A stretch of DNA of 64,000 nucleotides, taken from assembly GCA_934101595.1 (NCBI GenBank), contig CAKORR010000003.1, positions 36,479 to 100,478 on the forward strand. The letters run 5' to 3'. Of the stretch, positions 2,040 to 49,060 are shown one piece after another (within the stretch, counting starts at the first letter, position 1; the number at the start of each line of letters is the position of its first letter). The translations under genes and the position numbers were made by a program. Source of the DNA: an uncultured Bacilli bacterium. GTDB lineage: Bacteria > Bacillota_I > Bacilli_A > RF39 > UBA660. Below the pieces are notes generated by a model. That model was not told the DNA's origin. It saw only the letters and a program-made list of their open reading frames with translations, and ran no database searches.

Positions 2040-3152
2040 TTATTTATTTCCTTCTTCATTAATTTGTTTTAATGTTTTTACAGAAATCTTATATTTAGTA
2101 AGTTTGCTAGCTAACACAACATTTGAGCCTTTTTTCCCAATAGCTAAGCTTAAATTATCATCACTTACAATTGCTAGCGCTTCTTTCTTTACTGGATCAG
2201 TAATACTTACAATCGCATCTTTAGCTGGGGAAAGAGCGTTCTTTATGAATTCTTCAGGAACTTCACTATATAGTACTAGATCTACTTTTTCACCATTTAA
2301 TTCTTTTAAAATACTTCCTATTCTTGATCCACGTTCACCAATACATGCTCCGATTGGATCAATTTTTTCATTGTTTGAAAATACTGCAACTTTACTACGA
2401 ACACCAGCTTCTCTAGCTACAGCATATAATTCAATTGTTCCATCTTGCAATTCTGGTATTTCAACTTCAAAAAGTCTTTTAACGAATCCATAATGTTTAC
2501 GTGATAAAAGAATAACTGGTCCCTTAGGTCCATTTTCAACTTTTGTTATATAAACTCTAATATTAGAACCCATTTTAATTTCTTCACCAGGAATTATTTC
2601 TGATTTTGGAAGAATTCCTCTTGTTCTACCTAAATCGATATAATAATTACGAGCATCTTCCATAGCTACCAACCCAAGCATCATTTCAAATTCTTTATCT
2701 TGAAATTCATTAATAATACTTTCTTTTTCAGCTTCTCTAATTTTTTGAGTAACTACTTGTTTAGCGGTTGCGGCTGCTACTCTACCAAAATCTTCAGGAG
2801 TTACTTCTTTTTCAATTGTTTCTCCAACCTTTATTCCTGGAACCATTTCCTCAGCTTGTTCTAATATAATTTGAGCATCTGGATTTATTTTAGGAGGAAT
2901 TTTAACAACATTTCCTTCCTCGTCTACTTCTTCTGTTCCAAAATCAACATCATCAACAACAATTAAATAAGAATATACTTTAATTTCACCAGTTTCTCTA
3001 TTAATGTCTACTCTAACATTGGTCTTAGAATCAAAATTCTTTTTATAAGCCGTTTGAAGAGCTAATTCTAACGCTTCAAAAATGACATCTTTACTAATAT
3101 TTTTTTCTTCAGCTAAATTATTTAAAGCTTTAATTAATTCTTTACTATTCAT
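2040..3152 (-). CDS. nusA: transcription termination/antitermination factor NusA
   Basis: 370 aa with N-terminal NusA domain, S1 and KH regions (VGETIEKEV..., GRTRGILPKSE, KH-like C-terminal part). Conserved position after rimP. Confidence 0.9.
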   Translation of the reverse strand: MNSKELIKALNNLAEEKNISKDVIFEALELALQTAYKKNFDSKTNVRVDINRETGEIKVYSYLIVVDDVDFGTEEVDEEGNVVKIPPKINPDAQIILEQAEEMVPGIKVGETIEKEVTPEDFGRVAAATAKQVVTQKIREAEKESIINEFQDKEFEMMLGLVAMEDARNYYIDLGRTRGILPKSEIIPGEEIKMGSNIRVYITKVENGPKGPVILLSRKHYGFVKRLFEVEIPELQDGTIELYAVAREAGVRSKVAVFSNNEKIDPIGACIGERGSRIGSILKELNGEKVDLVLYSEVPEEFIKNALSPAKDAIVSITDPVKKEALAIVSDDNLSLAIGKKGSNVVLASKLTKYKISVKTLKQINEEGNK

Positions 3153-3153
3153 A

Positions 3154-3399
3154 TTATCCTCTTTCCTTACTTATAACGTCCAAAATATAACTATCCTTAG
3201 TAGTTACTTCTTTATCCACTATAGGATTTATTATGTGGGTTGCATCTACAATAGTATCTATATCAATACCATTTACCTTGTCTAATTCCACTGTTAGAAA
3301 GTTATATTTACCATTTTTCTTGTATGTTACACTACATACGATAATATTCTTATCTTTTAGTGCCTCTGCTATTTTTTCTTTTAAACTATCTAAATTCAT
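3154..3399 (-). CDS. rimP: ribosome maturation factor RimP, N-terminal domain only (truncated)
   Basis: 81 aa whose C-terminus ends with YILDVISKERG, matching the RimP N-domain end (YLDVSSPGAERPL in B. subtilis YlxS). Stop abuts the nusA start. Confidence 0.6.
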   Translation of the reverse strand: MNLDSLKEKIAEALKDKNIIVCSVTYKKNGKYNFLTVELDKVNGIDIDTIVDATHIINPIVDKEVTTKDSYILDVISKERG

Positions 3400-3420
3400 A
3401 CCTCACCTCATTTAGTTAAT

Positions 3421-3444
3421 AATAAAAGTGGGTTTTTGCCCACT
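3421..3444 (-). terminator. rho-independent terminator downstream of ylbL-like gene
   Basis: Hairpin AGTGGGCAAAAACCCACT followed by T-rich run on the minus strand. Confidence 0.5.
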
Positions 3445-3498
3445 TAAATCTGTCATGAATACATTATATCATAATAAACACTTAAATAAAAGACTTTT

Positions 3499-4518
3499 TT
3501 AATCTAAGTTTTTTAATGCCTTTATAGTTCCTTCTAAAGTAGAAACTTTTATTACTTTTAACTTCTTATTTCCATTAAGAGCTTTAATCGCATCATCATA
3601 GTTTTCTTCCGGACATAAAAATACATCCGCATGTTTTTTTATAGCTCCTAAAACCTTATATTTAACTCCACCTATTTCTCCGACATTACCAGATGCATCT
3701 ATAGTTCCAGTCCCAGCAATAATTTTACCTTTTGTTATATCTTCTTTAGTTAATTTATTATAAATACTTAAAGCCATCATTAATCCTCCACTTGGACCTG
3801 ATTCACTTTCTTTAGTTTTTATCTTTACTTCTGGATTTGTCACATAATCATATGTTGTTATAACTGAGACACCTATTTTTAGTTCATTATCAACTTTAAA
3901 TACTTTACTCGTTGTTAAAACTTCTTTTTTTCCTCTTTTAACTAAAATATTTAAAACATCATTTTCTTTATGAGAATTAATTATTTTTTTCATTTCCGCA
4001 AGACTTTTAATCTCAATATCATCAATTGATATTATTTCATCATAATCTTTAATAGTAGTCTCTGCATCTTTAAGAACATATATTACATGATTATGATATC
4101 CTGTAATATCCAGCTTATGATCCGTTAATTTATAACTAGATATAATAGCATTATCTATAGATTCCTGAGTTTGAATCCGATCCTTTTTTAAAGTTTCTGA
4201 AACACTATCACCATCATAAGTTACATTTTCACTTTTTTCTAAGTCCCAATTAGGCATAATATATGATAACAACACAAATGGTATTTTTCCTTTAAGCATC
4301 GAAACATAACACATACCTATTTTTCCTTTTGTTTCATAGCCATTCTTAACATTTATACGATTATTTAAATTAACTAGCCCACCTGGTTTATAAATAACAA
4401 AAGGAAGCTCTATTGAAAATAAAGCCACTAAAACAGCTATTATTATTAATTCCTTTAAATTATTCTTGATAAATTCTTTTATTTTTTCATATATATTAGT
4501 AAACAATATCATCACCAT
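3499..4518 (-). CDS. ylbL: YlbL/SepM-like PDZ domain protein with Lon-type (S16) protease domain
   Basis: N-terminal TM, PDZ-like region, and C-terminal ...GPSGGLMMALSIYNKL... Lon catalytic-serine motif. Neighbours ylbJ as in B. subtilis. Confidence 0.7.
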   Translation of the reverse strand: MVMILFTNIYEKIKEFIKNNLKELIIIAVLVALFSIELPFVIYKPGGLVNLNNRINVKNGYETKGKIGMCYVSMLKGKIPFVLLSYIMPNWDLEKSENVTYDGDSVSETLKKDRIQTQESIDNAIISSYKLTDHKLDITGYHNHVIYVLKDAETTIKDYDEIISIDDIEIKSLAEMKKIINSHKENDVLNILVKRGKKEVLTTSKVFKVDNELKIGVSVITTYDYVTNPEVKIKTKESESGPSGGLMMALSIYNKLTKEDITKGKIIAGTGTIDASGNVGEIGGVKYKVLGAIKKHADVFLCPEENYDDAIKALNGNKKLKVIKVSTLEGTIKALKNLD

Positions 4519-25590: not shown

Positions 25591-28500
25591 TTAACTAGTT
25601 ATTACTTTTAACCCGCTAACTATTTTATCAAGATTAGATAAATTTCCCCCTATCGCTTCATCAAAAGCTGGCCCTAACTTGTTTGCAAAAAAATTTGGGA
25701 CTGTGATTTTATCTATGGGATTTGAAATGAGTGATATATCATTATTGATGTATGCACACTTAATTGTTTCGATGTCTAAACCCTCTATATTCATATTTAA
25801 AATTTGCTTCAATCTTCTTACTGCTGGTGTATAACCACAAAATTCTTTAGTTGGATAGGCTTTTCCCATTGCTAATTCATTTAAAAGTTCTGTAACAGTC
25901 TCATTTATGCCTGTGTTACTAATTGAACGACCATTTGAATCACAAATAATCACTCTTAATCCAGCCCTTATGTATGTAATTCCAGTAGACGGGTCAGTAT
26001 AAGCCCGTCTTGCAGAAAGCTGATGTAAACTTTCATGCGATATGGTACTTTTTATAATTTTATCCGAATAAGCTAAACTCATTACACTTTCTCTACCATT
26101 ATTGAAAGCCATCCATCTAGGGTTAGCAGTTGATTTAGCAAATTCTTCAGGTTCTAAAAATATAAACGTACCTTTAAGGTCAGAAAGATCCGATTCACTA
26201 GCTAAAGATGAAAACATCTTTCTAAAGTTATTTATCATAACTGTTTCTGCCCAATCATTAAGGCCCACCGCTCTTGGGGATAAATAAAATTTTTTAATGC
26301 TTTGCATTCTTTCTTGCACTCTGTTAAGTTTAAAATAATATCCATTACTTTTCATCATATCGTCAATTTGCTTTAAGCCATTTGCTATTTCATTTTTCGA
26401 TAAACCTTGAAACAATGTATTCATATTATTCTTAAAATCATATGCAAATGCGTTAAAAATTGATTCTGATTGTATGAGATTTAATAAATATGCTGTAGAA
26501 ACTTTTTTAGATGCATCACTCCTTCTTAATTTAACATCAACTGTTTCTTTTAATCCTCTAACGTATTTTCCTGATAGTATCAATTGTTCTATTTCTAAAT
26601 TATTTACTATGTTATGATAAGTAACACTGTCAATACTTTTATTTGATAATATCTTATTAAGTTGCTCCACATCTAAATTACTTGTTACTATACCCATATT
26701 AGCACTATCTAATTTGCTAATAGCATTAACAAGGGTAGTTTCATCGGCATTGCCAATAATTAATTTTAAATTATCACTATTGTATACATACGTTATTAAT
26801 TTTTCTAAAGTACTAGCATCCATACTTTTTAATGAACTAATAAGCTCATTTTTTTTCAACGATATTACTTCATCGAAATTAACGCCTGGATTATTTTTTC
26901 TTATTGTGACCAATTCTTCAAGGCTATATTTATTAACATAAAGTGTTTCACCTTCTTTTAATCTTATTGCCTCAATTTCTTTAATTCTTTGTGATTTAGC
27001 ATTATTTGTTCCTGTTTTTTCAACAACTTTAGATTTTTGAGGAGCATTATTTGCACCAACTTTATCAACAATTTTAGAGTTTGGTTGGATACCGCTAGCA
27101 CGTTTTCCTTTAACACTTGCTATTCCGCCCATTGCAGCACTAGCTACTGTTGAAGTTGCTTTATTATATCCATTTAAAACAAGAGTCGAAACTAGTGTTT
27201 GAGCAAAAGTATCTCCCATCTCCTCTTTTATATTATTAAATGCTTCGGTGTCTCCCTCAACAAGTGCTTTATAACCTTTATCCAAAAACAACTGCAATTC
27301 TTCTTCGGTTATTTCATTTACAACATTACCAAATAAGCCAAATTTTTGTTCAATAACTGAGAATCCAACACCTGATAAAAATAGTGATGTAACAGATTCG
27401 GATGCCGTTGAGAATACTGCATATTTAAATGCACCATCAAGGCTTTTACCTTCTTCTAAAGATTGATCAAAAGTGTTACCTAGTATTGAAGCACTCATAG
27501 CCACGTTACCAACTATACCACCAATTTTATTATTCTTTGTAAGTGCCGTTACAACAGTTGACAACGTTGCCGGAATTAACATATTACCAATGGATGAGGC
27601 AGTACTATATGTGAAATCCAAGCCAACTTTGTAATCGTCACTCGATAGTGCTTCAATTATGTACATGTTTTCATAATCATCAACATCAACTACAGAATCA
27701 GCAAATACTAAATTATAGTAACCACTTAAGAAATTTTGCAAACCATTTTTTACACCCTCACCAGCTGTTCTAACATAATCAACATTATTATTCTTAAGGC
27801 TGTTTAAAAATTCTAAAGCATTAGCTTCTCCTTCTCTTCGATTTAATTCGTCCTCCAAAAATGATAGATAATCGTCAGCGGCGTCAACTGATACTACTTT
27901 GTGTAAATAATTATACATAGCAATTTCGTCAGGTTCCATGAATAATTTTTGCTTGTCACTTAGATAATCTAGACTTCCATATTTTTCAATACGCCATTCA
28001 TTACCCTTTTCAATCAAAAATTGTTCAACACACGCCTCTTGATTAAAAGCTTTCCATGTTTCGTATGATAACTTGCTTCCAGAATTTTTATAAACGTTTT
28101 CCATGTATTCGCTTATTTCAGCTTCTGTATAATTAAAGCCTTCCAATGCACTTAGGCTATATGTTGCTGATTTTGAAGAAAAATTAATTTGCTTTAATTG
28201 ACCCATATATTCAGCTTTAAATGTTACATATGCATCGCGTTTTTTTTCTAAATCGCTTATTTTTGCGGAAAGGCTTTGCATTTCTGCAAATCTTTTATCA
28301 TCTTGGTTATTTACTTTGTTTTCAAGCATCTTAACCAGTGGCATGGTATCATCATTATTCGCATCATTTTGCTCATTTAGCAATTGTTCATACTGTTCTT
28401 TTAACTTTTTAATTTCACTGTTTAACTCATTTCCTCTAGAATCAATTTCTTTCATGACCTCTTCAATTGTATCATTTATAAATTTATTTCTTTCTTCAGA

Positions 28501-29544
28501 AAGAGTTTGTATTTTATTTTGAAGCTTATTTAGTTTCGCCCTAGTTTCTTCGTCAATATTATCAGATGCCAAAGCAAAATTGCCGCCTAAATTATTAAAT
28601 TCATCTAGTAAATTAAGAAGATCTTCATCATATTTTTCATATTTAGAACGAGTATCATCATCAATTAATTGCCAATCATCTACTCCCAACTCTTTTAAAG
28701 TTTTTTCAAATTCTGGCATATTTTGAAAAACTGCAGTATTAACTGAGTTTTCATAAACTTGTGAATTTCTATCAGAAATATCATTAATTCCTTTAGCAAA
28801 TTCACTTTTGATATAATCTACATTTTCGCTTTTAGCCATAATTTTGTTTAATAAATCTAACAATTTTCCCTGAAGCCAATTAATTATTCGATCCATAAAA
28901 CTTGAATTCTCATCAGAAAGCTCTTTAGTTTCATTGGCACCAGTCTTGCTGTTATCTACACTATCAACTTTTAAGATATTGTCTGCAACAGTTACAAGAT
29001 CATTAGTTTCTACAGCTTTTGTTGTTTCTTCAGTTTTAGAAACTTGGTTTGAAGAAGATGTATCAGTTGGCTTAACTGTTTCAATATTTGTAGTTTTATC
29101 TATTTCTTTTGTGGCTTTACTTACATTCTCTACTTTAACATCATTAGTAGTGTTTTCCTTTTTTACATCAACACTACTTTTTTCTTCTGGCTCACTAGTA
29201 GTATCACCTAAGTATTCAATATTATCAGCCTTATTACTACTTCTCGTGTTAGTTTTTGTTGGTCTATTACTATTCGTATCACGAACGATGCCTCTAATAG
29301 AGTTAACATTTCCTTTTTCGATACCGCCAATAATACTTATAGCGTCACTTATAGATTTGCTAGCTTCACTACTAATTCTTTGAACTTCTTTATATTTTTC
29401 TAAAATATTATTTATGTCACTAGAAAAATCACTAGAAAAAGAATTTCTAGATAAGAAATTTATAATTGCTTGGATTATATTACCAGCTAATCTTAAATCT
29501 GAGGATATAATCTCTTTTAATTTTGACAAATCCACATTAATCAT
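25591..29544 (-). CDS. large (1317 aa) polymorphic toxin-like protein, probable T7SSb substrate, C-terminal HExxH zincin-like domain
   Basis: Follows WXG100, DUF4176-like and small helical genes in one orientation. Helical N-terminus, long coiled-coil middle, Gly-rich hydrophobic segment (aa ~608-700), C-terminal ...ISHESLHQL... at aa 1170-1174. Confidence 0.6.
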   Translation of the reverse strand: MINVDLSKLKEIISSDLRLAGNIIQAIINFLSRNSFSSDFSSDINNILEKYKEVQRISSEASKSISDAISIIGGIEKGNVNSIRGIVRDTNSNRPTKTNTRSSNKADNIEYLGDTTSEPEEKSSVDVKKENTTNDVKVENVSKATKEIDKTTNIETVKPTDTSSSNQVSKTEETTKAVETNDLVTVADNILKVDSVDNSKTGANETKELSDENSSFMDRIINWLQGKLLDLLNKIMAKSENVDYIKSEFAKGINDISDRNSQVYENSVNTAVFQNMPEFEKTLKELGVDDWQLIDDDTRSKYEKYDEDLLNLLDEFNNLGGNFALASDNIDEETRAKLNKLQNKIQTLSEERNKFINDTIEEVMKEIDSRGNELNSEIKKLKEQYEQLLNEQNDANNDDTMPLVKMLENKVNNQDDKRFAEMQSLSAKISDLEKKRDAYVTFKAEYMGQLKQINFSSKSATYSLSALEGFNYTEAEISEYMENVYKNSGSKLSYETWKAFNQEACVEQFLIEKGNEWRIEKYGSLDYLSDKQKLFMEPDEIAMYNYLHKVVSVDAADDYLSFLEDELNRREGEANALEFLNSLKNNNVDYVRTAGEGVKNGLQNFLSGYYNLVFADSVVDVDDYENMYIIEALSSDDYKVGLDFTYSTASSIGNMLIPATLSTVVTALTKNNKIGGIVGNVAMSASILGNTFDQSLEEGKSLDGAFKYAVFSTASESVTSLFLSGVGFSVIEQKFGLFGNVVNEITEEELQLFLDKGYKALVEGDTEAFNNIKEEMGDTFAQTLVSTLVLNGYNKATSTVASAAMGGIASVKGKRASGIQPNSKIVDKVGANNAPQKSKVVEKTGTNNAKSQRIKEIEAIRLKEGETLYVNKYSLEELVTIRKNNPGVNFDEVISLKKNELISSLKSMDASTLEKLITYVYNSDNLKLIIGNADETTLVNAISKLDSANMGIVTSNLDVEQLNKILSNKSIDSVTYHNIVNNLEIEQLILSGKYVRGLKETVDVKLRRSDASKKVSTAYLLNLIQSESIFNAFAYDFKNNMNTLFQGLSKNEIANGLKQIDDMMKSNGYYFKLNRVQERMQSIKKFYLSPRAVGLNDWAETVMINNFRKMFSSLASESDLSDLKGTFIFLEPEEFAKSTANPRWMAFNNGRESVMSLAYSDKIIKSTISHESLHQLSARRAYTDPSTGITYIRAGLRVIICDSNGRSISNTGINETVTELLNELAMGKAYPTKEFCGYTPAVRRLKQILNMNIEGLDIETIKCAYINNDISLISNPIDKITVPNFFANKLGPAFDEAIGGNLSNLDKIVSGLKVITS

Positions 29545-39334: not shown

Positions 39335-39685
39335 AAAAAAATAATATCCATATAAGCCATGTTCTGTCCTTTGTAAAAAGGGGCAAATATTTATCTACCA
39401 CATAAGCGGTCCCCTACTCTGTTTTATTCCTTTGTAGAAGCTCCCCTACCAAAATTTGGGTTTCTCGCTCGCGGGGTTTACCACGTTCCACTTACAAAGT
39501 TTCCCTTGTATCTCGTCTCTTTGGCACTTTTATATCTAATCTAACCATTTAAGGTTATTTCGAAGCCGTTAGTATACACTACCTTAGGTTATTTTTTCCC
39601 TAAGCACGAACACTACAACCATTTCAGGTTGTGCGAGCATGGACTTTCCTCTACATAAATAATTTATGCAGCATTTGCCTAGATA
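39335..39685 (-). ncRNA. rnpB: RNase P RNA, type B (Firmicutes)
   Basis: Minus-strand GAGGAAAGTCCATGCTCGCAC...GTTCGTGC...AGTGCCAAAG...GGAACGTGGTAAACCCCGCGAGCGAGAAACCCAAATTTTGGTAGGGG...GGACAGAACATGG matches B. subtilis rnpB universally conserved blocks. Ends are approximate. Confidence 0.85.
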
Positions 39686-40018
39686 TTATTCATCTTTTCC
39701 GTAAACAATTTTTTCAAGTTGACTAATTCTTCTAAGAACATCGATATTATTTATTGATCTTGTCTGATTGTTTCCTTCACCAGCAGCTTCAATAGTCGTT
39801 CTAAGTCTTCTTATTTCTTGTTTAAGTTTTATATTATCTTCTGTAAGATCTTTTATTTCTTTATCCTTGGATTTAATAATTGAAATAAATTCGGCATAAT
39901 CACGTATAACCATATCAAGATATTTATCAACCTCCTGAGGTCTATAGCCTCTCGCATCAACTTTAAATTCCTTTTCAAGTATTTCTTGAGGAGTTAAGTA
40001 AATTCTATCATTATACAT
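39686..40018 (-). CDS. gpsB: cell-cycle protein GpsB (DivIVA-domain)
   Basis: ...LTPQEILEKEFK...RGYRPQEVDKYLDMVIRDYAEF... DivIVA N-domain, about 110 aa. Adjacent to rnpB as in B. subtilis. Confidence 0.75.
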   Translation of the reverse strand: MYNDRIYLTPQEILEKEFKVDARGYRPQEVDKYLDMVIRDYAEFISIIKSKDKEIKDLTEDNIKLKQEIRRLRTTIEAAGEGNNQTRSINNIDVLRRISQLEKIVYGKDE

Positions 40019-44702: not shown

Positions 44703-45777
44703 GATAAAAACCCTCCTCTTTCAAATAATTAGTAATAGACTTTCGGCCATTTTTCATAGTTCCCTCAAGTATTTTTTCTACTAGTATGTTGATTATATTG
44801 CCAAATTCTTTACCGGACGCTTTAGTCATCATCAATAATTTATTTGGAGTTATTGCAAGATCCTGTGGACTTTTAATGGCAAGTGACTTATACATTTTGT
44901 TTATTACCTTTAAGTCATTATTAAGTATTTGAGCTGCCACGGTACAAAGATATAATCCGTTTTCGTATAGGGATCTGTTGGTAATGCCATATTTGATAAT
45001 GGATTTAATTTTTATTATATGATTGTTTTCTTCCTTTGTAAACGGCAAATCACAATTAATATTCATTTGAGCATACATACCGCATAAATCTTCTACTTTT
45101 TTGATATTTTCACATTTAATATTTATAACCTCGAATATCCTTAGTTCATTTAATAAGTCAATGCCTTTTAAACAATTATCGCTTAAAAGGATCTTATCTA
45201 ACTCATTTTTTATTCTAGAATACGAAAGGGATTTTACTAATTCGGCATGATTATAAATGAAAGAAAAAATTTCATTGCTTAGCTCAAAATTTAATATAGT
45301 AGCAAATCTTATCGCTCTAAAAATACGTAAAGGATCCTCATTCATTTTTTTTGAAACATTACCAACCATTTCTATTCTTTTGAGATTTATATCGTTAGAG
45401 CCTTTAAATATATCTATAATTTGCCCTTTTTGGTTGATGCATATCGTATTCATAGTAAAATCGCGACGTTTTAAATCTTCAATAAGATTACTAACATATT
45501 TAACACTTTTTGGATGTCTATCTTTGTAATCTATTTCTTCACGATAAGTTGTTACTTCAAAGTTGTATTTTTTTAGTTTAAAAGATGCTGAACCATATAT
45601 ACCAGTTGATGCATAAGGAAATATCTTTTTCAAATCTTTAGGCAAGGCATTAGTGCATATATCAATATCATAACTATGTTTTCCTAAAAGGAAATCTCTA
45701 ACATAGCCTCCAATGACATACGCTTCGAAGCCATTTTTTTCTATCATAGAAAGGACTTTTTTTATTATTTTTTCCAT
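44692..45777 (-). CDS. cca: CCA-adding tRNA nucleotidyltransferase
   Basis: ...AYVIGGYVRDFLLGK...DIDICT... Pol-beta NT motif, ...TYREE.DY.DRHP.... Confidence 0.75.
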   Translation of the reverse strand: MEKIIKKVLSMIEKNGFEAYVIGGYVRDFLLGKHSYDIDICTNALPKDLKKIFPYASTGIYGSASFKLKKYNFEVTTYREEIDYKDRHPKSVKYVSNLIEDLKRRDFTMNTICINQKGQIIDIFKGSNDINLKRIEMVGNVSKKMNEDPLRIFRAIRFATILNFELSNEIFSFIYNHAELVKSLSYSRIKNELDKILLSDNCLKGIDLLNELRIFEVINIKCENIKKVEDLCGMYAQMNINCDLPFTKEENNHIIKIKSIIKYGITNRSLYENGLYLCTVAAQILNNDLKVINKMYKSLAIKSPQDLAITPNKLLMMTKASGKEFGNIINILVEKILEGTMKNGRKSITNYLKEEGFYREN

Positions 45778-46613
45778 TTTTTTCGGCCTTTCTTAGTTGT
45801 TTTAACCATCATGGATATAATTAGTGCTCCAACCAAAGCTATTAAATATTTATAATCTATAGAATACTCGGCTGTTAAAGTAAGATCTCCAGTTACTGGC
45901 TGAGAAAAGTCATATTTTTGTGAACCTAGATACCAGCCCTTGAAGATAAAGCCATCTTTTTTTGAAGGTGTCAAAGTTTTAATTTTTTCGTTTGCTTTAA
46001 CTTTCTTTACGACTTCTTTATCTTTACTTTTAAATGTAACAGTGTAGTATACTAAAGAAAGTAATTTTCCATCAGCATAATCAATAGTTGTGCAGTAGCC
46101 ATCAGTGTTTTTATTAATCGACCAAATACCTAATGAATTATCAATTGCATTTTTCTCTTCCTGACATAGATCATCTAAATAGCTATAGCTTCCATATATA
46201 TAGGCGACTTTAGCGTAACCGTTTTTTAGTAGTAACTGTTCTAATAAAACATCATCAACCCACACCCACGCTAGTAGTCTGCCATATTTGTCAGTCTGTT
46301 CACTATTGGCATCATATTGAATTTCAATTTTTTGAGCACTTTTCAAAGTTGAACAGGTAAAATCACTGGCTTCTTTGCCAAATGGTTCCTTTTTCTTCTT
46401 CGGATGAACACTTTCCGGGGTATCAATAGCAAGAAATCGCACTTTTTTCTCATCACCATTGACTGTAAAAGTCGCCGTATCACCATCAACACATTTGCTT
46501 AATTGAACTTCTATTTTTTCCGTTTGAATGGCCTTTTTTGTCTTGGCATTTACACATGGAAAATAAAATAATACAATAGAAATCAATAATAGTTTTGCAA
46601 AAGTTTTCTTCAT
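45765..46613 (-). CDS. secreted thermonuclease (SNase-like) with C-terminal extension and membrane anchor
   Basis: Signal peptide, ...CVDGDTATF...RFLAIDTPE...YGRLLAWVWVDD... SNase catalytic motifs, C-terminal TM plus KKGRKKWKK. Confidence 0.7.
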   Translation of the reverse strand: MKKTFAKLLLISIVLFYFPCVNAKTKKAIQTEKIEVQLSKCVDGDTATFTVNGDEKKVRFLAIDTPESVHPKKKKEPFGKEASDFTCSTLKSAQKIEIQYDANSEQTDKYGRLLAWVWVDDVLLEQLLLKNGYAKVAYIYGSYSYLDDLCQEEKNAIDNSLGIWSINKNTDGYCTTIDYADGKLLSLVYYTVTFKSKDKEVVKKVKANEKIKTLTPSKKDGFIFKGWYLGSQKYDFSQPVTGDLTLTAEYSIDYKYLIALVGALIISMMVKTTKKGRKKWKK

Positions 46614-46770
46614 ACAATCACCTTACTATATTTTAACACAAATAAAAGTAAAAATATTAAACAGATATATTTTTTTACATTTTTATGACAATTTTAAAAA
46701 GCATACTAATATGTGACAAATTTTTTCGAATTATTGTTATTTAATATTCAGTCAAAGAAAGGATTTGTAC

Positions 46771-47505
46771 ATGAAAAAAGAAATTAAAATTTTGTATCGC
46801 GAATTTTATAGAATAAGAAATATGGGATTGATAAAAAGTTTGCGAGGTGGCTCAACCGGAATTGGCTATACATTTGAAACACTACTTTCTAAAAAAGAAG
46901 ATCAAAGTTTCAAGCCTGACTATTTAGGAATAGAAATTAAAACACATTTGGGATATTCTAAATCACCGATAACTTTGTTTAATTTAACTCCTGAAAACAT
47001 AGATAAAAAGACCACAAAAGATCTTTTAAAAGAATATGGTTACAGGAAAAATGCTGACTTTATTTTTCGAAAAGAAATAAGATACAGCTTTAATGAGCTG
47101 AATCCGATAAAATACTATTTTAAACTTTATGTTAGTAAAGAAATGAAGAAGATTATATTGCAAGTTTATAATAGATACTTATATTTAATTGATGATAGCT
47201 ATTATTGGGAATTTAGAAAATTACAAGAACGTCTAAAAACAAAATTGTCCTACTTAGCTATTGTTACGGGTTATGACTACGTATATAGTGGTGTCACTTA
47301 TTACAAATACACAAGCATGAACGTTTTTAGTTTGAAACAATTTGAAAGCTTTTTAGACTTGGTTGAAAAAAATAAAATTTTTATAATATTTAATTTAAAG
47401 GCTATGAACTCTGAAGAATATGGTGAATACGTCAAGGATCACGGAACAGCTTTTAGAATCGAATTGTCTAGCATTGGCGATTTATTTGAAAAAGTTATTT
47501 TGTAA
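46771..47505 (+). CDS. MvaI/BcnI-like (MutH-fold) PD-(D/E)XK restriction endonuclease, orphan
   Basis: ATG at 46771 with AAAGGA RBS. ...LRGGSTGIGYTFETLL... then D50-x4-E55-x-K57 (PDYLGIEIK), same spacing as BcnI D55/E60/K62. 245 aa. Confidence 0.55.
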   Translation: MKKEIKILYREFYRIRNMGLIKSLRGGSTGIGYTFETLLSKKEDQSFKPDYLGIEIKTHLGYSKSPITLFNLTPENIDKKTTKDLLKEYGYRKNADFIFRKEIRYSFNELNPIKYYFKLYVSKEMKKIILQVYNRYLYLIDDSYYWEFRKLQERLKTKLSYLAIVTGYDYVYSGVTYYKYTSMNVFSLKQFESFLDLVEKNKIFIIFNLKAMNSEEYGEYVKDHGTAFRIELSSIGDLFEKVIL

Positions 47506-47556
47506 AGGACCTAGGGGCATAAAAAAACAGTACTTGGTGTACTGTATAAATTTAAC

Positions 47557-47633
47557 TGGTCGAGAAGACAGGATTTGAACCTGCAACCCCTAGGTCCCAA
47601 ACCTAGTGCACTACCAAATTGTGCTACTTCTCG
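47557..47633 (-). tRNA. tRNA-Pro (UGG)
   Basis: Cloverleaf read by hand: CGAGAAG acceptor, anticodon loop TTTGGGA, T-arm GGTTCAAATCC, CCA end. Confidence 0.85.
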
Positions 47634-47638
47634 ATACT

Positions 47639-47715
47639 TGGTACGCCCAGAGGGAGTCGAACCCCCAACCTTTAGATCCGTAGTCTAACGCTCTATCCAA
47701 TTGAGCTATGGGCGC
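47639..47715 (-). tRNA. tRNA-Arg (ACG)
   Basis: GCGCCCATAGCTCAATTGGATAGAGC..., anticodon loop CTACGGA, T-arm GGTTCGACTCC, CCA end. Confidence 0.85.
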
Positions 47716-47827: not shown

Positions 47828-49060
47828 CTAACTAATTAAAACCCGCTTTCTTACAATTTCACTTATAAACTCGTTTTTTTCTAATGAGTTACAATAAAAC
47901 ATACGACGTTGTAGCACGTCTTTTAACAGTTTTAAAACAGTTTTGGATTTATCTGTCACGTTTTTAACATAATTAACTATACGGTCACCATCATCAAATT
48001 GCTTTAATCTATAATATTCTTTAGCAACAGCTAAAAGCACAATACACTTTTGTTCATTGCCTAAATTTAAATTGGCAAATCCGTTCATTAAACTTTCGCA
48101 GTCATCAGAGGATAGATATTCCAGTTGAGCATCCGAAATATTATATAAATCCAAAGAAGCATTATCATAGAAATCATTTTCTTGCATATAAAATTCCGGC
48201 TTAATTTCATCATAATTTTGAAATCGACATTTGTTCATCATGTCATTAGATAACGCATCAGGATTTATCGCCTTAGCAACTAAATAGTAATCGAGACTCT
48301 TTTTAAAATCTTTTAGCTTGAAATAAATGTTTCCCAACATTAAGTAAACATAATAACTATGTGAAATCTGCAGAAGCTTTTTATAGCAAGAAAGTGAACT
48401 GCCGTAATCTCCTATCTTAAAATAATTATCAGCTTTTTTTATCATTGATGAAAATTTTGACTTTGAATACTTTTCGTTTGATCTAGTTTTAAGCATTAAT
48501 TTCGTTCCCTCTAAAGTGTGAATTTTTATACAAAGCACTCCGCCAATGGTGTTCATATTAAGAATAGAATTTAACTTTTCTTCTGGATAGTTTGATATCA
48601 AAACTATATCACCAGTATCCAATGCTTGACGGGCAAAAGATTTAAATATATCCAAGTTCTCAGTTTGCTTTAATTCTAAGCGTTCTTCATATTTTTTTAT
48701 TAAATCTTTCTGACTAGTAAGGCCATATAGTTGAAACATATTTAGTAAATTTTTGTAGTATATCTTTGCCTCTTTGTAATTATCGGTTTCTAATGACGCG
48801 ACAGCTTCATTTAAAAGCACATTTTCAGGTTTAGTAAAATTTGAAAAAAATATCATTCTTAAACCAAGAGTGGTAAACGTGTAATCATAATCCTTTTTTA
48901 AGGTGTCAATCGCAAAATAAGCTTTGATTAAAGAATAGCAATTATCTTTGCGAAAATCATTTAAAAACCTTTTTAATTCTTCGTCAATCTTTTTATTCTT
49001 TTTTATATACTCTATTAAAGTATCAAATGCTGTATTACTAATCTGCGACAAAAAATTCAC
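47828..49060 (-). CDS. TPR-repeat protein (Rap/RNPP-like architecture without HTH)
   Basis: 410 aa, all-helical with multiple 34-residue TPR-like repeats (e.g. ...YVYLMLGNIYFKLKDFKKSLDYYLVAKAINP...). Inserted between tRNA genes. Confidence 0.5.
   Translation of the reverse strand: MNFLSQISNTAFDTLIEYIKKNKKIDEELKRFLNDFRKDNCYSLIKAYFAIDTLKKDYDYTFTTLGLRMIFFSNFTKPENVLLNEAVASLETDNYKEAKIYYKNLLNMFQLYGLTSQKDLIKKYEERLELKQTENLDIFKSFARQALDTGDIVLISNYPEEKLNSILNMNTIGGVLCIKIHTLEGTKLMLKTRSNEKYSKSKFSSMIKKADNYFKIGDYGSSLSCYKKLLQISHSYYVYLMLGNIYFKLKDFKKSLDYYLVAKAINPDALSNDMMNKCRFQNYDEIKPEFYMQENDFYDNASLDLYNISDAQLEYLSSDDCESLMNGFANLNLGNEQKCIVLLAVAKEYYRLKQFDDGDRIVNYVKNVTDKSKTVLKLLKDVLQRRMFYCNSLEKNEFISEIVRKRVLIS

Follow-up and report, generated by a model that had tools for sequence, protein, structure and literature searches.

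A solitary MvaI-family endonuclease gene beside tRNA-Pro

The DNA described here is a stretch of 64 kb (hereafter the window) of contig CAKORR010000003.1 from an uncultured Bacilli bacterium, and the gene of interest encodes a MvaI/BcnI-family PD-(D/E)XK endonuclease of 244 amino acids with an intact active site that converges on a tRNA-Pro and a tRNA-Arg gene of the opposite strand (Table 1). An earlier note on this DNA, made from the letters alone, had already placed the open reading frame (ORF), its characteristic motifs and the two convergent tRNA genes where we find them, and the family that it proposed is borne out by the Pfam profile PF15515 (MvaI_BcnI), which matches the protein over its full length (profile positions 3-227 of 227) with an E-value of 7.5e-33 and 114.9 bits (cutoff 25). 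R.MvaI (2oa9) is the top sequence match in the PDB (E 4.4e-32), BcnI is matched by profile only (E 4e-14), and PADLOC assigns the protein to REase_II PDLC03521 (E 8.4e-33). The ORF as listed begins at a TTG at position 46765, and homologues begin at the ATG at 46771; relatives carry strong AGGAGG-type ribosome-binding sites at the place equivalent to the GAAAGGA of the window gene.

The motif GGSTGIGYTFETLL is followed in the window protein by PDYLGIEIK, which contains D50, E55 and K57 and aligns to PDFHDIEIK of MvaI. Together with E36 these residues bear the same numbers as the active-site residues E36/D50/E55/K57 of MvaI (PMC1874612). The earlier note had compared the D-x4-E-x-K spacing with D55/E60/K62 of BcnI, whose numbering it gave correctly, and the numbering of MvaI turns out to be identical to that of the window protein. 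All four residues are invariant across 44 sequences of the solitary (orphan) clade described below and across 14 and 18 homologues that are linked to an N4-cytosine (N4) or a C5-cytosine (C5) methyltransferase, respectively. By structure as well, the window protein is MvaI-like rather than BcnI-like. Its AlphaFold (AF2) model has a predicted local distance difference test (pLDDT) score of 91.3 and a predicted template modelling (TM) score (pTM) of 0.87, and Foldseek aligns this model to the closed MvaI-DNA complex 2oaa with the same two-lobe clamp fold (TM 0.90, E 3.6e-22), compared to a TM of 0.67-0.72 and 17% identity in the structural alignment for BcnI and a TM of 0.31 (E 0.09) for MutH 2aoq, which is also not among the matches of the window protein in PDB sequence searches.

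Table 1. Features of the nuclease locus (positions are those of the window)
Feature	Position	Strand	Basis or remark
Promoter-like ATGACA-16-TAATAT	46685..46712	+	Consensus match only; such sites in the region are not above shuffled expectation
Ribosome-binding site GAAAGGA, 7 nt 5' of the ATG	46757..46763	+	Read from the sequence
Gene for the solitary MvaI-family endonuclease (244 aa), belonging to the orphan clade linked to tRNA-Pro	46771..47505	+	PF15515, R.MvaI 2oa9, AF2 model, Foldseek, tree
Catalytic codons E36 (46876-46878), D50 (46918-46920), E55 (46933-46935), K57 (46939-46941)	46876..46941	+	MvaI alignment
Strain-variable patch of the recognition lobe, residues 98-123	47062..47139	+	Comparison with the 98%-identical homologue L001
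Codons at MvaI major-groove readout positions: I206 (D207), N208 (R209), K222-D223-H224 (H223-D224-H225), R229 (R230)	47386..47457	+	Alignment
Copy of tRNA-Pro positions 37-47, GGACCTAGGGG, inverted-repeat arm in the 3' spacer	47507..47517	+	Perfect inverted repeat of 47587-47597
Terminator-like hairpin with a T7 run, at the end of the tRNA operon	47527..47545	-	Read on the + strand, it is not followed by a similar T-run
tRNA-Pro(UGG), closing the tRNA operon; 3' end 52 bp from the nuclease stop codon	47557..47633	-	tRNA detection
Second inverted-repeat arm, within the tRNA-Pro gene	47587..47597	-	Perfect inverted match to 47507-47517
tRNA-Arg(ACG), partner of tRNA-Pro in the conserved pair	47639..47715	-	tRNA detection

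No methyltransferase is linked to the gene or its clade

The window reaches 46.7 kb upstream and 16.5 kb downstream of the nuclease gene, and no DNA methyltransferase was found in it by a motif scan for [DNS]PP[YFWH] or PCQ+ENV, by hidden Markov models built from the N4 and C5 methyltransferases that lie beside distant homologues, by tblastn with these same methyltransferases or by Pfam scans of around 40 ORFs of the window. These four tests agree with what the earlier note had read from the sequence, and the one methyltransferase gene that it had mentioned (10864-11739) is, by Pfam, of the RNA-directed Methyltrans_SAM / Cons_hypoth95 type.

The same absence extends across the relatives of the gene. 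A scan of species-representative genomes yielded 80 loci and a metagenome scan 80 further ones, among which an orphan group of 53 genome loci (GC content 23-34%, from gut and rumen assemblies recorded as "Bacilli / Erysipelotrichaceae / Tenericutes") has no linked methyltransferase in flanks of up to 10 kb. None was found within flanks of up to 6 kb at the metagenome loci of this clade either, bringing the total without a linked methylase to about 100 loci over fetched flanks of up to 6-10 kb. No methyltransferase remnant came to light when 41 N4, C5 and Vsr proteins were compared to all orphan loci by tblastn, and the sole methylase in the orphan genome flanks is an unrelated Type I HsdM (locus L049). 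Homologues outside the clade, in contrast, adjoin an N4 (PF01555, SPPY) or C5 (PF00145) methyltransferase in 29 of 32 genome loci, with Vsr only at the remaining three; among these loci, which come from many phyla and share 25-32% identity with the window protein, the N4 methyltransferase usually lies directly downstream and the C5 type usually comes with Vsr (PF03852). Nine metagenome loci with 30-34% identity adjoin an N4 methylase as well, and several of these are low in GC. Because N4 methylases are thus readily detected beside low-GC homologues, low GC content does not explain why none is seen in the clade. The window gene stands alone as expected of a modification-dependent (Type IIM/IV) enzyme and not, as in an orthodox system, next to its methyltransferase.

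A solitary gene could nevertheless belong to a separated restriction-modification (R-M) system, in which an orthodox Type IIP enzyme is held in check by an unlinked chromosomal methyltransferase that protects CCWGG or a derivative of this site. A minority of solitary enzymes are known or predicted to be arranged in this way (PMC3488263), which an intact active site under strong selection would fit. We consider this explanation rather unlikely for the window gene, given some 100 loci of the clade with no linked methylase while relatives of the characterised type keep theirs adjacent, and two further lines of evidence that bear on it are taken up below.

The clade is vertically inherited under purifying selection

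A protein search with the window protein returned one relative of 98% identity, with the next best at no more than 48%. In neighbour-joining, distance-based trees (the host genomes are uncultured assemblies, whose taxonomy is taken from the titles of their records and, for the window, from its class B RNase P RNA), the orphan clade is monophyletic with 68% bootstrap among 82 sequences, where orphans plus MvaI receive 98.5%, and with 96% bootstrap in a tree of about 160 sequences, in which its ca. 117 members exclude MvaI and all methylase-linked sequences. MvaI is its closest characterised relative.

Locus L002, on a 225-kb contig, encodes a homologue with 46% protein identity and is fully syntenic with the window, with a common gene order of RecA, PgsA, RecU, penicillin-binding protein, Nth, DnaD, CCA enzyme, nuclease, tRNAs, S1, NifU and YutH, and parts of this neighbourhood are kept in other loci. 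In ten genome pairs the dN/dS of the nuclease is 0.07-0.2, with flanking genes of the same pairs in the same range, and its divergence tracks that of its neighbours PgsA, HTH_25, cl7 and Nth (Mantel r 0.69-0.81, P 0.0005-0.02); no correlation was seen with S1, NifU and YutH, which are short proteins with saturated distances. The genes of the clade are vertically inherited under purifying selection like neighbouring core genes, and we find a single clade with synteny and co-divergence instead of the patchy, horizontally transferred distribution expected of an orthodox Type II system. The earlier note had argued that the enzyme must be non-classical, and this view gains strength from the clade-wide absence of a methyltransferase, the vertical inheritance and the purifying selection. 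A phage origin was considered and rejected, as the viral contigs searched contain no relatives of the window protein.

The great majority of the ca. 117 clade sequences have a full-length ORF, and copies at L009, L028 and L039 are truncated or split, so that the gene is dispensable in some lineages. There is no conserved protein-coding partner (the commonest neighbour occurs in 15 of 53 loci), and the gene upstream of the nuclease is a different one at nearly all loci.

Solitary enzymes frequently prove to be silent or mere fragments (PMC3488263), and the few truncated clade members could be taken to mean that the window gene, too, is an inactive relic of a decayed R-M system that is tolerated because it does not cut. 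Of all explanations weighed here this is the least likely, and we give it very little credence: ORFs are full length in most of the clade, E36, D50, E55 and K57 are invariant, the predicted fold is confident and ribosome-binding sites are good. The low dN/dS and the invariant catalytic residues likewise make inactivity, which the earlier note had listed as one option, unlikely.

Two further observations concern individual members. A rabbit-gut assembly (L087) carries two MvaI-like paralogues (651-1382 and 2803-3540) that are 38% identical and lie 1.4 kb apart with a DUF2130 gene between them; only the second adjoins tRNA-Pro, and the first has E36 replaced by N and a deletion of four residues before the IEIK motif. 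A public metagenome contig of 77.7 kb (L089, OIYS01000054.1) encodes a protein 100% identical to the window protein and probably stems from the same organism.

DNA-reading residues vary in the clade and are fixed in methylase-linked relatives

MvaI contacts the minor groove through R25, N28, T29 and N45 and the major groove through T68, T102, D207, R209, Y213, H223, D224, H225 and R230 (PMC1874612). Aligned to these major-groove residues, the window protein keeps T68, D223 (D224 of MvaI), H224 (H225) and R229 (R230) and has replaced D207 by I206, R209 by N208, T102 by E and H223 by K222. Across the orphan clade, R25, T29 and K159 are invariant alongside the catalytic residues. The major-groove positions of the clade are more variable than the protein at large (mean entropy 2.56 vs 1.90 over all sites, P 0.023), whereas they are conserved in N4-linked (0.14 vs 1.06, P < 1e-4) and C5-linked homologues (0.86 vs 1.52, P 0.026), keeping in mind that these entropy tests, like the co-variation tests below, correct for phylogeny incompletely. 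The exact MvaI signature T-T/S-D-R-Y-H-D-H-R is present in all N4-linked metagenome homologues, and all methylase-linked homologues of the MvaI type keep the full MvaI readout set.

Within the clade, sub-clades hold readout signatures of their own, with N at position 209 in the group of the window protein, Y in the group of L007 and S-L...N-S-H-S in another, which argues that specificity has probably been changed rather than abolished. As judged from these alignments, the window protein lacks the CCWGG readout signature, and the label of a CCNGG-type cutter that the earlier note had attached to it is unsupported, since readout residues that are invariant in methyltransferase-linked relatives are replaced in the window protein and hypervariable in its clade. 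The differences between sub-clades also speak against a separated R-M system, because an unlinked methylase would have had to go through many changes of specificity in step with the nuclease.

Variation reaches down to the level of strains. All four amino-acid differences between the window protein and its 98%-identical homologue L001 lie at residues 98-109 (I98V, Y105N, S106C, E109G), and nine of the 11 nucleotide differences fall inside a 78-nt stretch (nucleotides 292-369 of the gene). The corresponding patch of residues 98-123 aligns with the MvaI loop that holds the DNA contacts H100, T102 and R107, and the clustering of changes looks like a recombination tract or local diversifying selection.

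Invariant minor-groove and backbone contacts (R25, T29, K159) beneath a varying major-groove readout could also be the mark of a domesticated housekeeping nickase that serves DNA repair or recombination and responds to an activating partner protein instead of to sequence alone, in the way that MutH relates to Sau3AI. The core-like, vertically inherited gene with the dN/dS of its housekeeping neighbours would suit such a role, and MvaI and MutH have their fold in common (PMC1874612). We nonetheless regard a repair nickase as distinctly improbable: none of 45 upstream regions contains a LexA/Cheo box, a conserved partner gene is missing, the truncated or split copies at L009, L028 and L039 attest to dispensability, and the conservation of readout within sub-clades together with the strain-level change in a contact loop resembles shifting specificity more than a constant function in repair. 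The likeness to MutH is at the level of the superfamily only, and neither the Foldseek comparison nor the upstream regions lend specific support to the MutH-like nicking that the earlier note had put forward as an option.

CCWGG is only mildly avoided in host DNA

The window contains 25 CCWGG and two CCSGG sites, and an unrestrained CCNGG cutter would therefore be harmful to its host; in this respect the earlier note, which held that such an enzyme would be lethal if unprotected, was right about the DNA that it would meet. For CCWGG, the window has an observed/expected ratio (O/E) of 0.67. Across 784 kb of orphan loci, nearly all of which contain some of the 334 sites, the ratio is 0.73, so that this sequence is barely avoided in orphan host DNA. 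In N4-linked loci, which serve as the positive control, no other 5-bp pseudopalindrome is avoided as strongly as CCWGG (O/E 0.38, z -9.8). The mild under-representation of CCWGG (O/E 0.7) and CCSGG (O/E 0.4-0.66) in the orphan host lineage could be taken in favour of a separated R-M system, but the avoidance of CCWGG is far weaker than in N4-linked hosts (0.73 vs 0.38). The orphan host DNA shows no sign of the deamination products of 5-methylcytosine (m5C).

The most under-represented short palindromic words of the orphan lineage, in the window and 784 kb of related loci, are CASTG (O/E 0.56-0.62), GATC (0.54) and CCSGG. CASTG is undepleted in other groups (O/E ~1.0). Reading the target of the nuclease from site avoidance was tried and given up: the avoidance of CASTG does not follow the sub-clades defined by readout residues and is for this reason not attributable to the nuclease, and nothing links the avoidance of either GATC or CASTG to it.

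The tRNA-Pro anchor and its inverted repeat

No feature of the clade is more conserved than its linkage to tRNA-Pro, a neighbour that the earlier note had mentioned in passing. Of 48 orphan genome loci that could be assessed, 41 have a tRNA-Pro(UGG) gene on the opposite strand 1-320 bp (typically <140 bp) past the stop codon, as a rule with tRNA-Arg(ACG) and the other genes of a 12-gene tRNA operon behind it, and three of the 48 carry the pair inverted (Arg and Pro both on the plus strand) at 117-168 bp. Counted in either orientation, tRNA-Pro(UGG) is found within 1-320 bp at 44 of 48 genome loci and most metagenome loci (~90%), and the arrangement recurs in the more divergent members P0063 and P0048. 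No tRNA-Pro(UGG) gene adjoins the nuclease at any of the 32 methylase-linked genome loci. At one of the 48 loci (L015), the nuclease gene and tRNA-Pro are set apart by an insertion of 1.1 kb (about 10741-11847) that is bordered by a direct copy of 17 bp from the 3' end of tRNA-Pro, TCCTGTCTTCCCGACCA. This classic integration footprint points to the 3' end of tRNA-Pro as an attachment site in the lineage.

The spacer between the two genes holds, on the nuclease strand, a degenerate copy of the tRNA-Pro of the same locus in about 32 of 40 related loci. The copy usually spans tRNA-Pro positions ~25-52, i.e., the anticodon arm, the variable loop and the start of the T stem, and in 22 of 31 loci no other tRNA matches it better than that of the locus itself (permutation P 0.0002). 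A read-through RNA of the plus strand would pair both arms of the resulting inverted repeat, with a predicted minimum free energy of -41.4 kcal/mol (z -3.4). To judge from its T-run, the hairpin at 47527-47545 is a terminator for the tRNA operon only. We infer that the inverted repeat is the footprint of an entry event that has been kept tRNA-like by short-range template switching or conversion, and it may also serve as a cis target or as an RNA structure.

Such a setting invites the idea of a selfish or locus-specific nuclease, either resembling a homing endonuclease or acting as a nickase whose cis target is the DNA of the tRNA-Pro anticodon arm or its inverted copy. The 3' linkage to tRNA-Pro(UGG) in ~90% of assessable loci with a variable upstream neighbour places the gene next to its would-be target, as expected of free-standing homing endonucleases; the spacer fragment co-varies with its own tRNA, the anticodon stem of tRNA-Pro is CCWGG-like (CCAGG, CCAAG or CCTAG), and the residues that have changed are those reading the +1 and central positions. 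We find this explanation doubtful all the same. Homing genes do not typically diverge together with their host for long under purifying selection, the viral contigs searched hold no relatives, a reader of 5 bp would meet many sites (CTWGG and CCWAG together number 117 in the window), and a passive origin by integration footprint and template switching could account for the inverted repeat. Furthermore, residue 209 shifts where the tRNA variant does not change, and there is no convincing co-variation of the two.

Residue 209 does show a tendency to go with the anticodon stem (N or Q with CCTAG, K with CCAAG and Y with CCATG), and co-variation of the two was rejected as a candidate signal because phylogeny confounds it and several sister groups depart from it. 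In the window, a gene for a tetratricopeptide-repeat protein of 410 aa (47828-49060, minus strand) splits the tRNA operon into Arg-Pro and Phe-Asp-Met-Ser, and the 12 tRNA genes are contiguous in many relatives.

A candidate methylase-independent nuclease of shifted specificity

The window protein is probably not an ordinary restriction enzyme. The explanation that we favour, with a probability of roughly 0.45, is an active and methylase-independent MvaI-family nuclease of shifted specificity that would be aimed at modified or foreign DNA and belong to a solitary subfamily anchored at tRNA-Pro. An ancestral gene of the MvaI type would have arrived beside tRNA-Pro, the 3' end of which would be an integration hot spot of the lineage, and would have lost its methylase there or never had one, with the host keeping the nuclease. 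Its present-day product, predicted to be a catalytically competent, monomeric, two-lobed and Mg2+-dependent PD-(D/E)XK enzyme, would still clamp DNA and use its single active site to cut one strand per binding event, as MvaI does, but it would no longer read CCWGG and would instead recognise a different, lineage-specific sequence or DNA state. The host chromosome would not offer this sequence or state in a form open to cleavage, making the activity compatible with an unmethylated chromosome, and the likeliest target would be modified or otherwise foreign DNA in a Type IIM/IV-like restriction or nicking function. We rank a methylase-independent restriction or nicking enzyme first because of the lineage-specific readout, the dispensability of the gene in some lineages, the strain-level change in a contact loop and the latent methyl-directed activity of the family, for which the m5C-directed nicking of CCSGG by MvaI, at C(m5C)GGG, is the precedent (PMC3001055).

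Several points weigh against this explanation. The searches for a methyltransferase span the window and flanks of up to 6-10 kb, an unlinked protecting methyltransferase could lie beyond these, and distant methylases have been predicted for 19 of 74 solitary Type II enzymes (PMC3488263). PADLOC matches the window protein to orthodox REase_II models only, and it has no similarity to known Type IV or IIM families. Defence genes do not usually stay at one chromosomal position or descend vertically for so long, and a role in defence leaves the conserved tRNA-Pro linkage and the co-varying inverted repeat unexplained.

A broader reading that we hold tentatively as possible is that the MvaI fold has been domesticated in this clade as a methylase-independent, tRNA-Pro-anchored nuclease with shifting readout, acting either as a fixed defence nuclease or as a site-specific nickase on the DNA of the tRNA-Pro anticodon arm and its co-varying inverted copy. 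If true, the clade would represent an undescribed functional class of restriction-enzyme relatives.

Relation to known systems and significance

R.MvaI (CC^WGG, a Type IIP monomer; 2oa9/2oaa) resembles the window protein in Pfam family, length, catalytic residues and their numbering, the two-lobe clamp fold of the model (TM 0.90) and the C-terminal readout loop (KDHGTAFRI in the window protein vs HDHGTAFRI in MvaI). It differs in that the two share only ~32% identity, that the window gene has no linked N4 methyltransferase of the M.MvaI type and is vertically inherited at a core-genome position beside tRNA-Pro, and that the counterparts of D207, R209, T102 and H223 are replaced. R.BcnI (CC^SGG, a monomer; 2odh/2odi) has the family, the fold and the D-x4-E-x-K motif in common with the window protein but is far more distant, at the 17% identity given above. 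Methylase-linked R-M systems of the MvaI type, found in many phyla, have a homologous nuclease domain with identical catalytic residues; unlike the window clade they are not located beside tRNA-Pro, possess an adjacent methyltransferase and keep either the MvaI readout signature (N4-linked) or a conserved one of their own (C5-linked).

Among the latter, the homologues linked to a C5 methyltransferase and Vsr at L052, L054, L059-L061, L069, L074, L076, L077, L079, L081 and L084 are ~400 aa long and carry the MvaI-like domain at the C-terminus (PADLOC PDLC03584, positions 175-386 of 405), with the conserved readout signature N68, E207, R-N-H and R230.

MutH, the GATC nickase of methyl-directed mismatch repair, is likewise a monomeric, two-lobed PD-(D/E)XK enzyme without a methylase of its own and sets a precedent for domestication (PMC1874612), but the window model resembles it only at superfamily level (TM 0.31), with no sequence match and no evidence for a role in repair. 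The solitary endonucleases surveyed in PMC3488263, where the MvaI family is not mentioned, are also full-length Type II-like genes without a neighbouring methyltransferase. The cases in that survey are scattered and are put down to truncation, to separated systems or to the decay of a methylase, whereas the ca. 117 sequences of the window clade are all solitary, conserved and at one fixed chromosomal position. In the literature searched, the coverage of which is incomplete, we found no description of a conserved, vertically inherited and tRNA-linked solitary MvaI clade, and the orphan clade thus appears to be a previously undescribed solitary subfamily of the MvaI family.

A Type II restriction enzyme that lacks its methylase should kill its host, and solitary examples tend to be written off as debris. 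The present clade departs from this picture: its ca. 117 sequences from gut Bacilli have long preserved an intact MvaI-type active site with no methylase linked to it, at a single chromosomal position and with change confined to the residues that read DNA. If the enzyme is active, the clade would supply enzyme engineering with naturally diversified MvaI-fold nucleases or nickases of new specificity and would make it possible to study how a restriction enzyme escapes from dependence on methylation. It might also reveal a new role in defence or DNA processing among uncultured gut Bacilli, which are poorly studied. The tRNA-Pro linkage with its co-varying inverted tRNA fragment is a feature of genome architecture that is of interest in its own right.

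Upstream sequences and other features of the window

SOS control of the nuclease was considered and rejected based on the lack of LexA/Cheo boxes in the 45 upstream regions. The word TCGACA(A) is enriched upstream of the nuclease (L010-L014, L022, L030, L041, L049), occurring in eight of 45 regions vs nine of 606 control regions; L041 has three copies at a spacing of ~10 bp, and the window carries GTGACA only. This word is probably a -35-like element in one related subgroup, or it may be an operator. Visual inspection of one sub-clade suggested a sigma-H-like AAAGGAAA...AATAAT pattern, which the window lacks.

The upstream neighbour of the nuclease gene (45765-46613, minus strand) encodes a protein of the staphylococcal nuclease family that has a Listeria-Bacteroides repeat domain and a hydrophobic segment at its N-terminus. 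Only the window and the closely related L001 have this gene, which therefore falls outside the conserved unit. Elsewhere in the window, an RNase P RNA of class B at 39348-39686 on the minus strand (281 bits) places the organism among Firmicutes-type bacteria. A 1317-aa ORF (25591-29544, minus strand) and two ORFs of 562 and 489 aa beside a MiaB-like gene (14092-17231, minus strand) have no Pfam match at E <= 1e-5.

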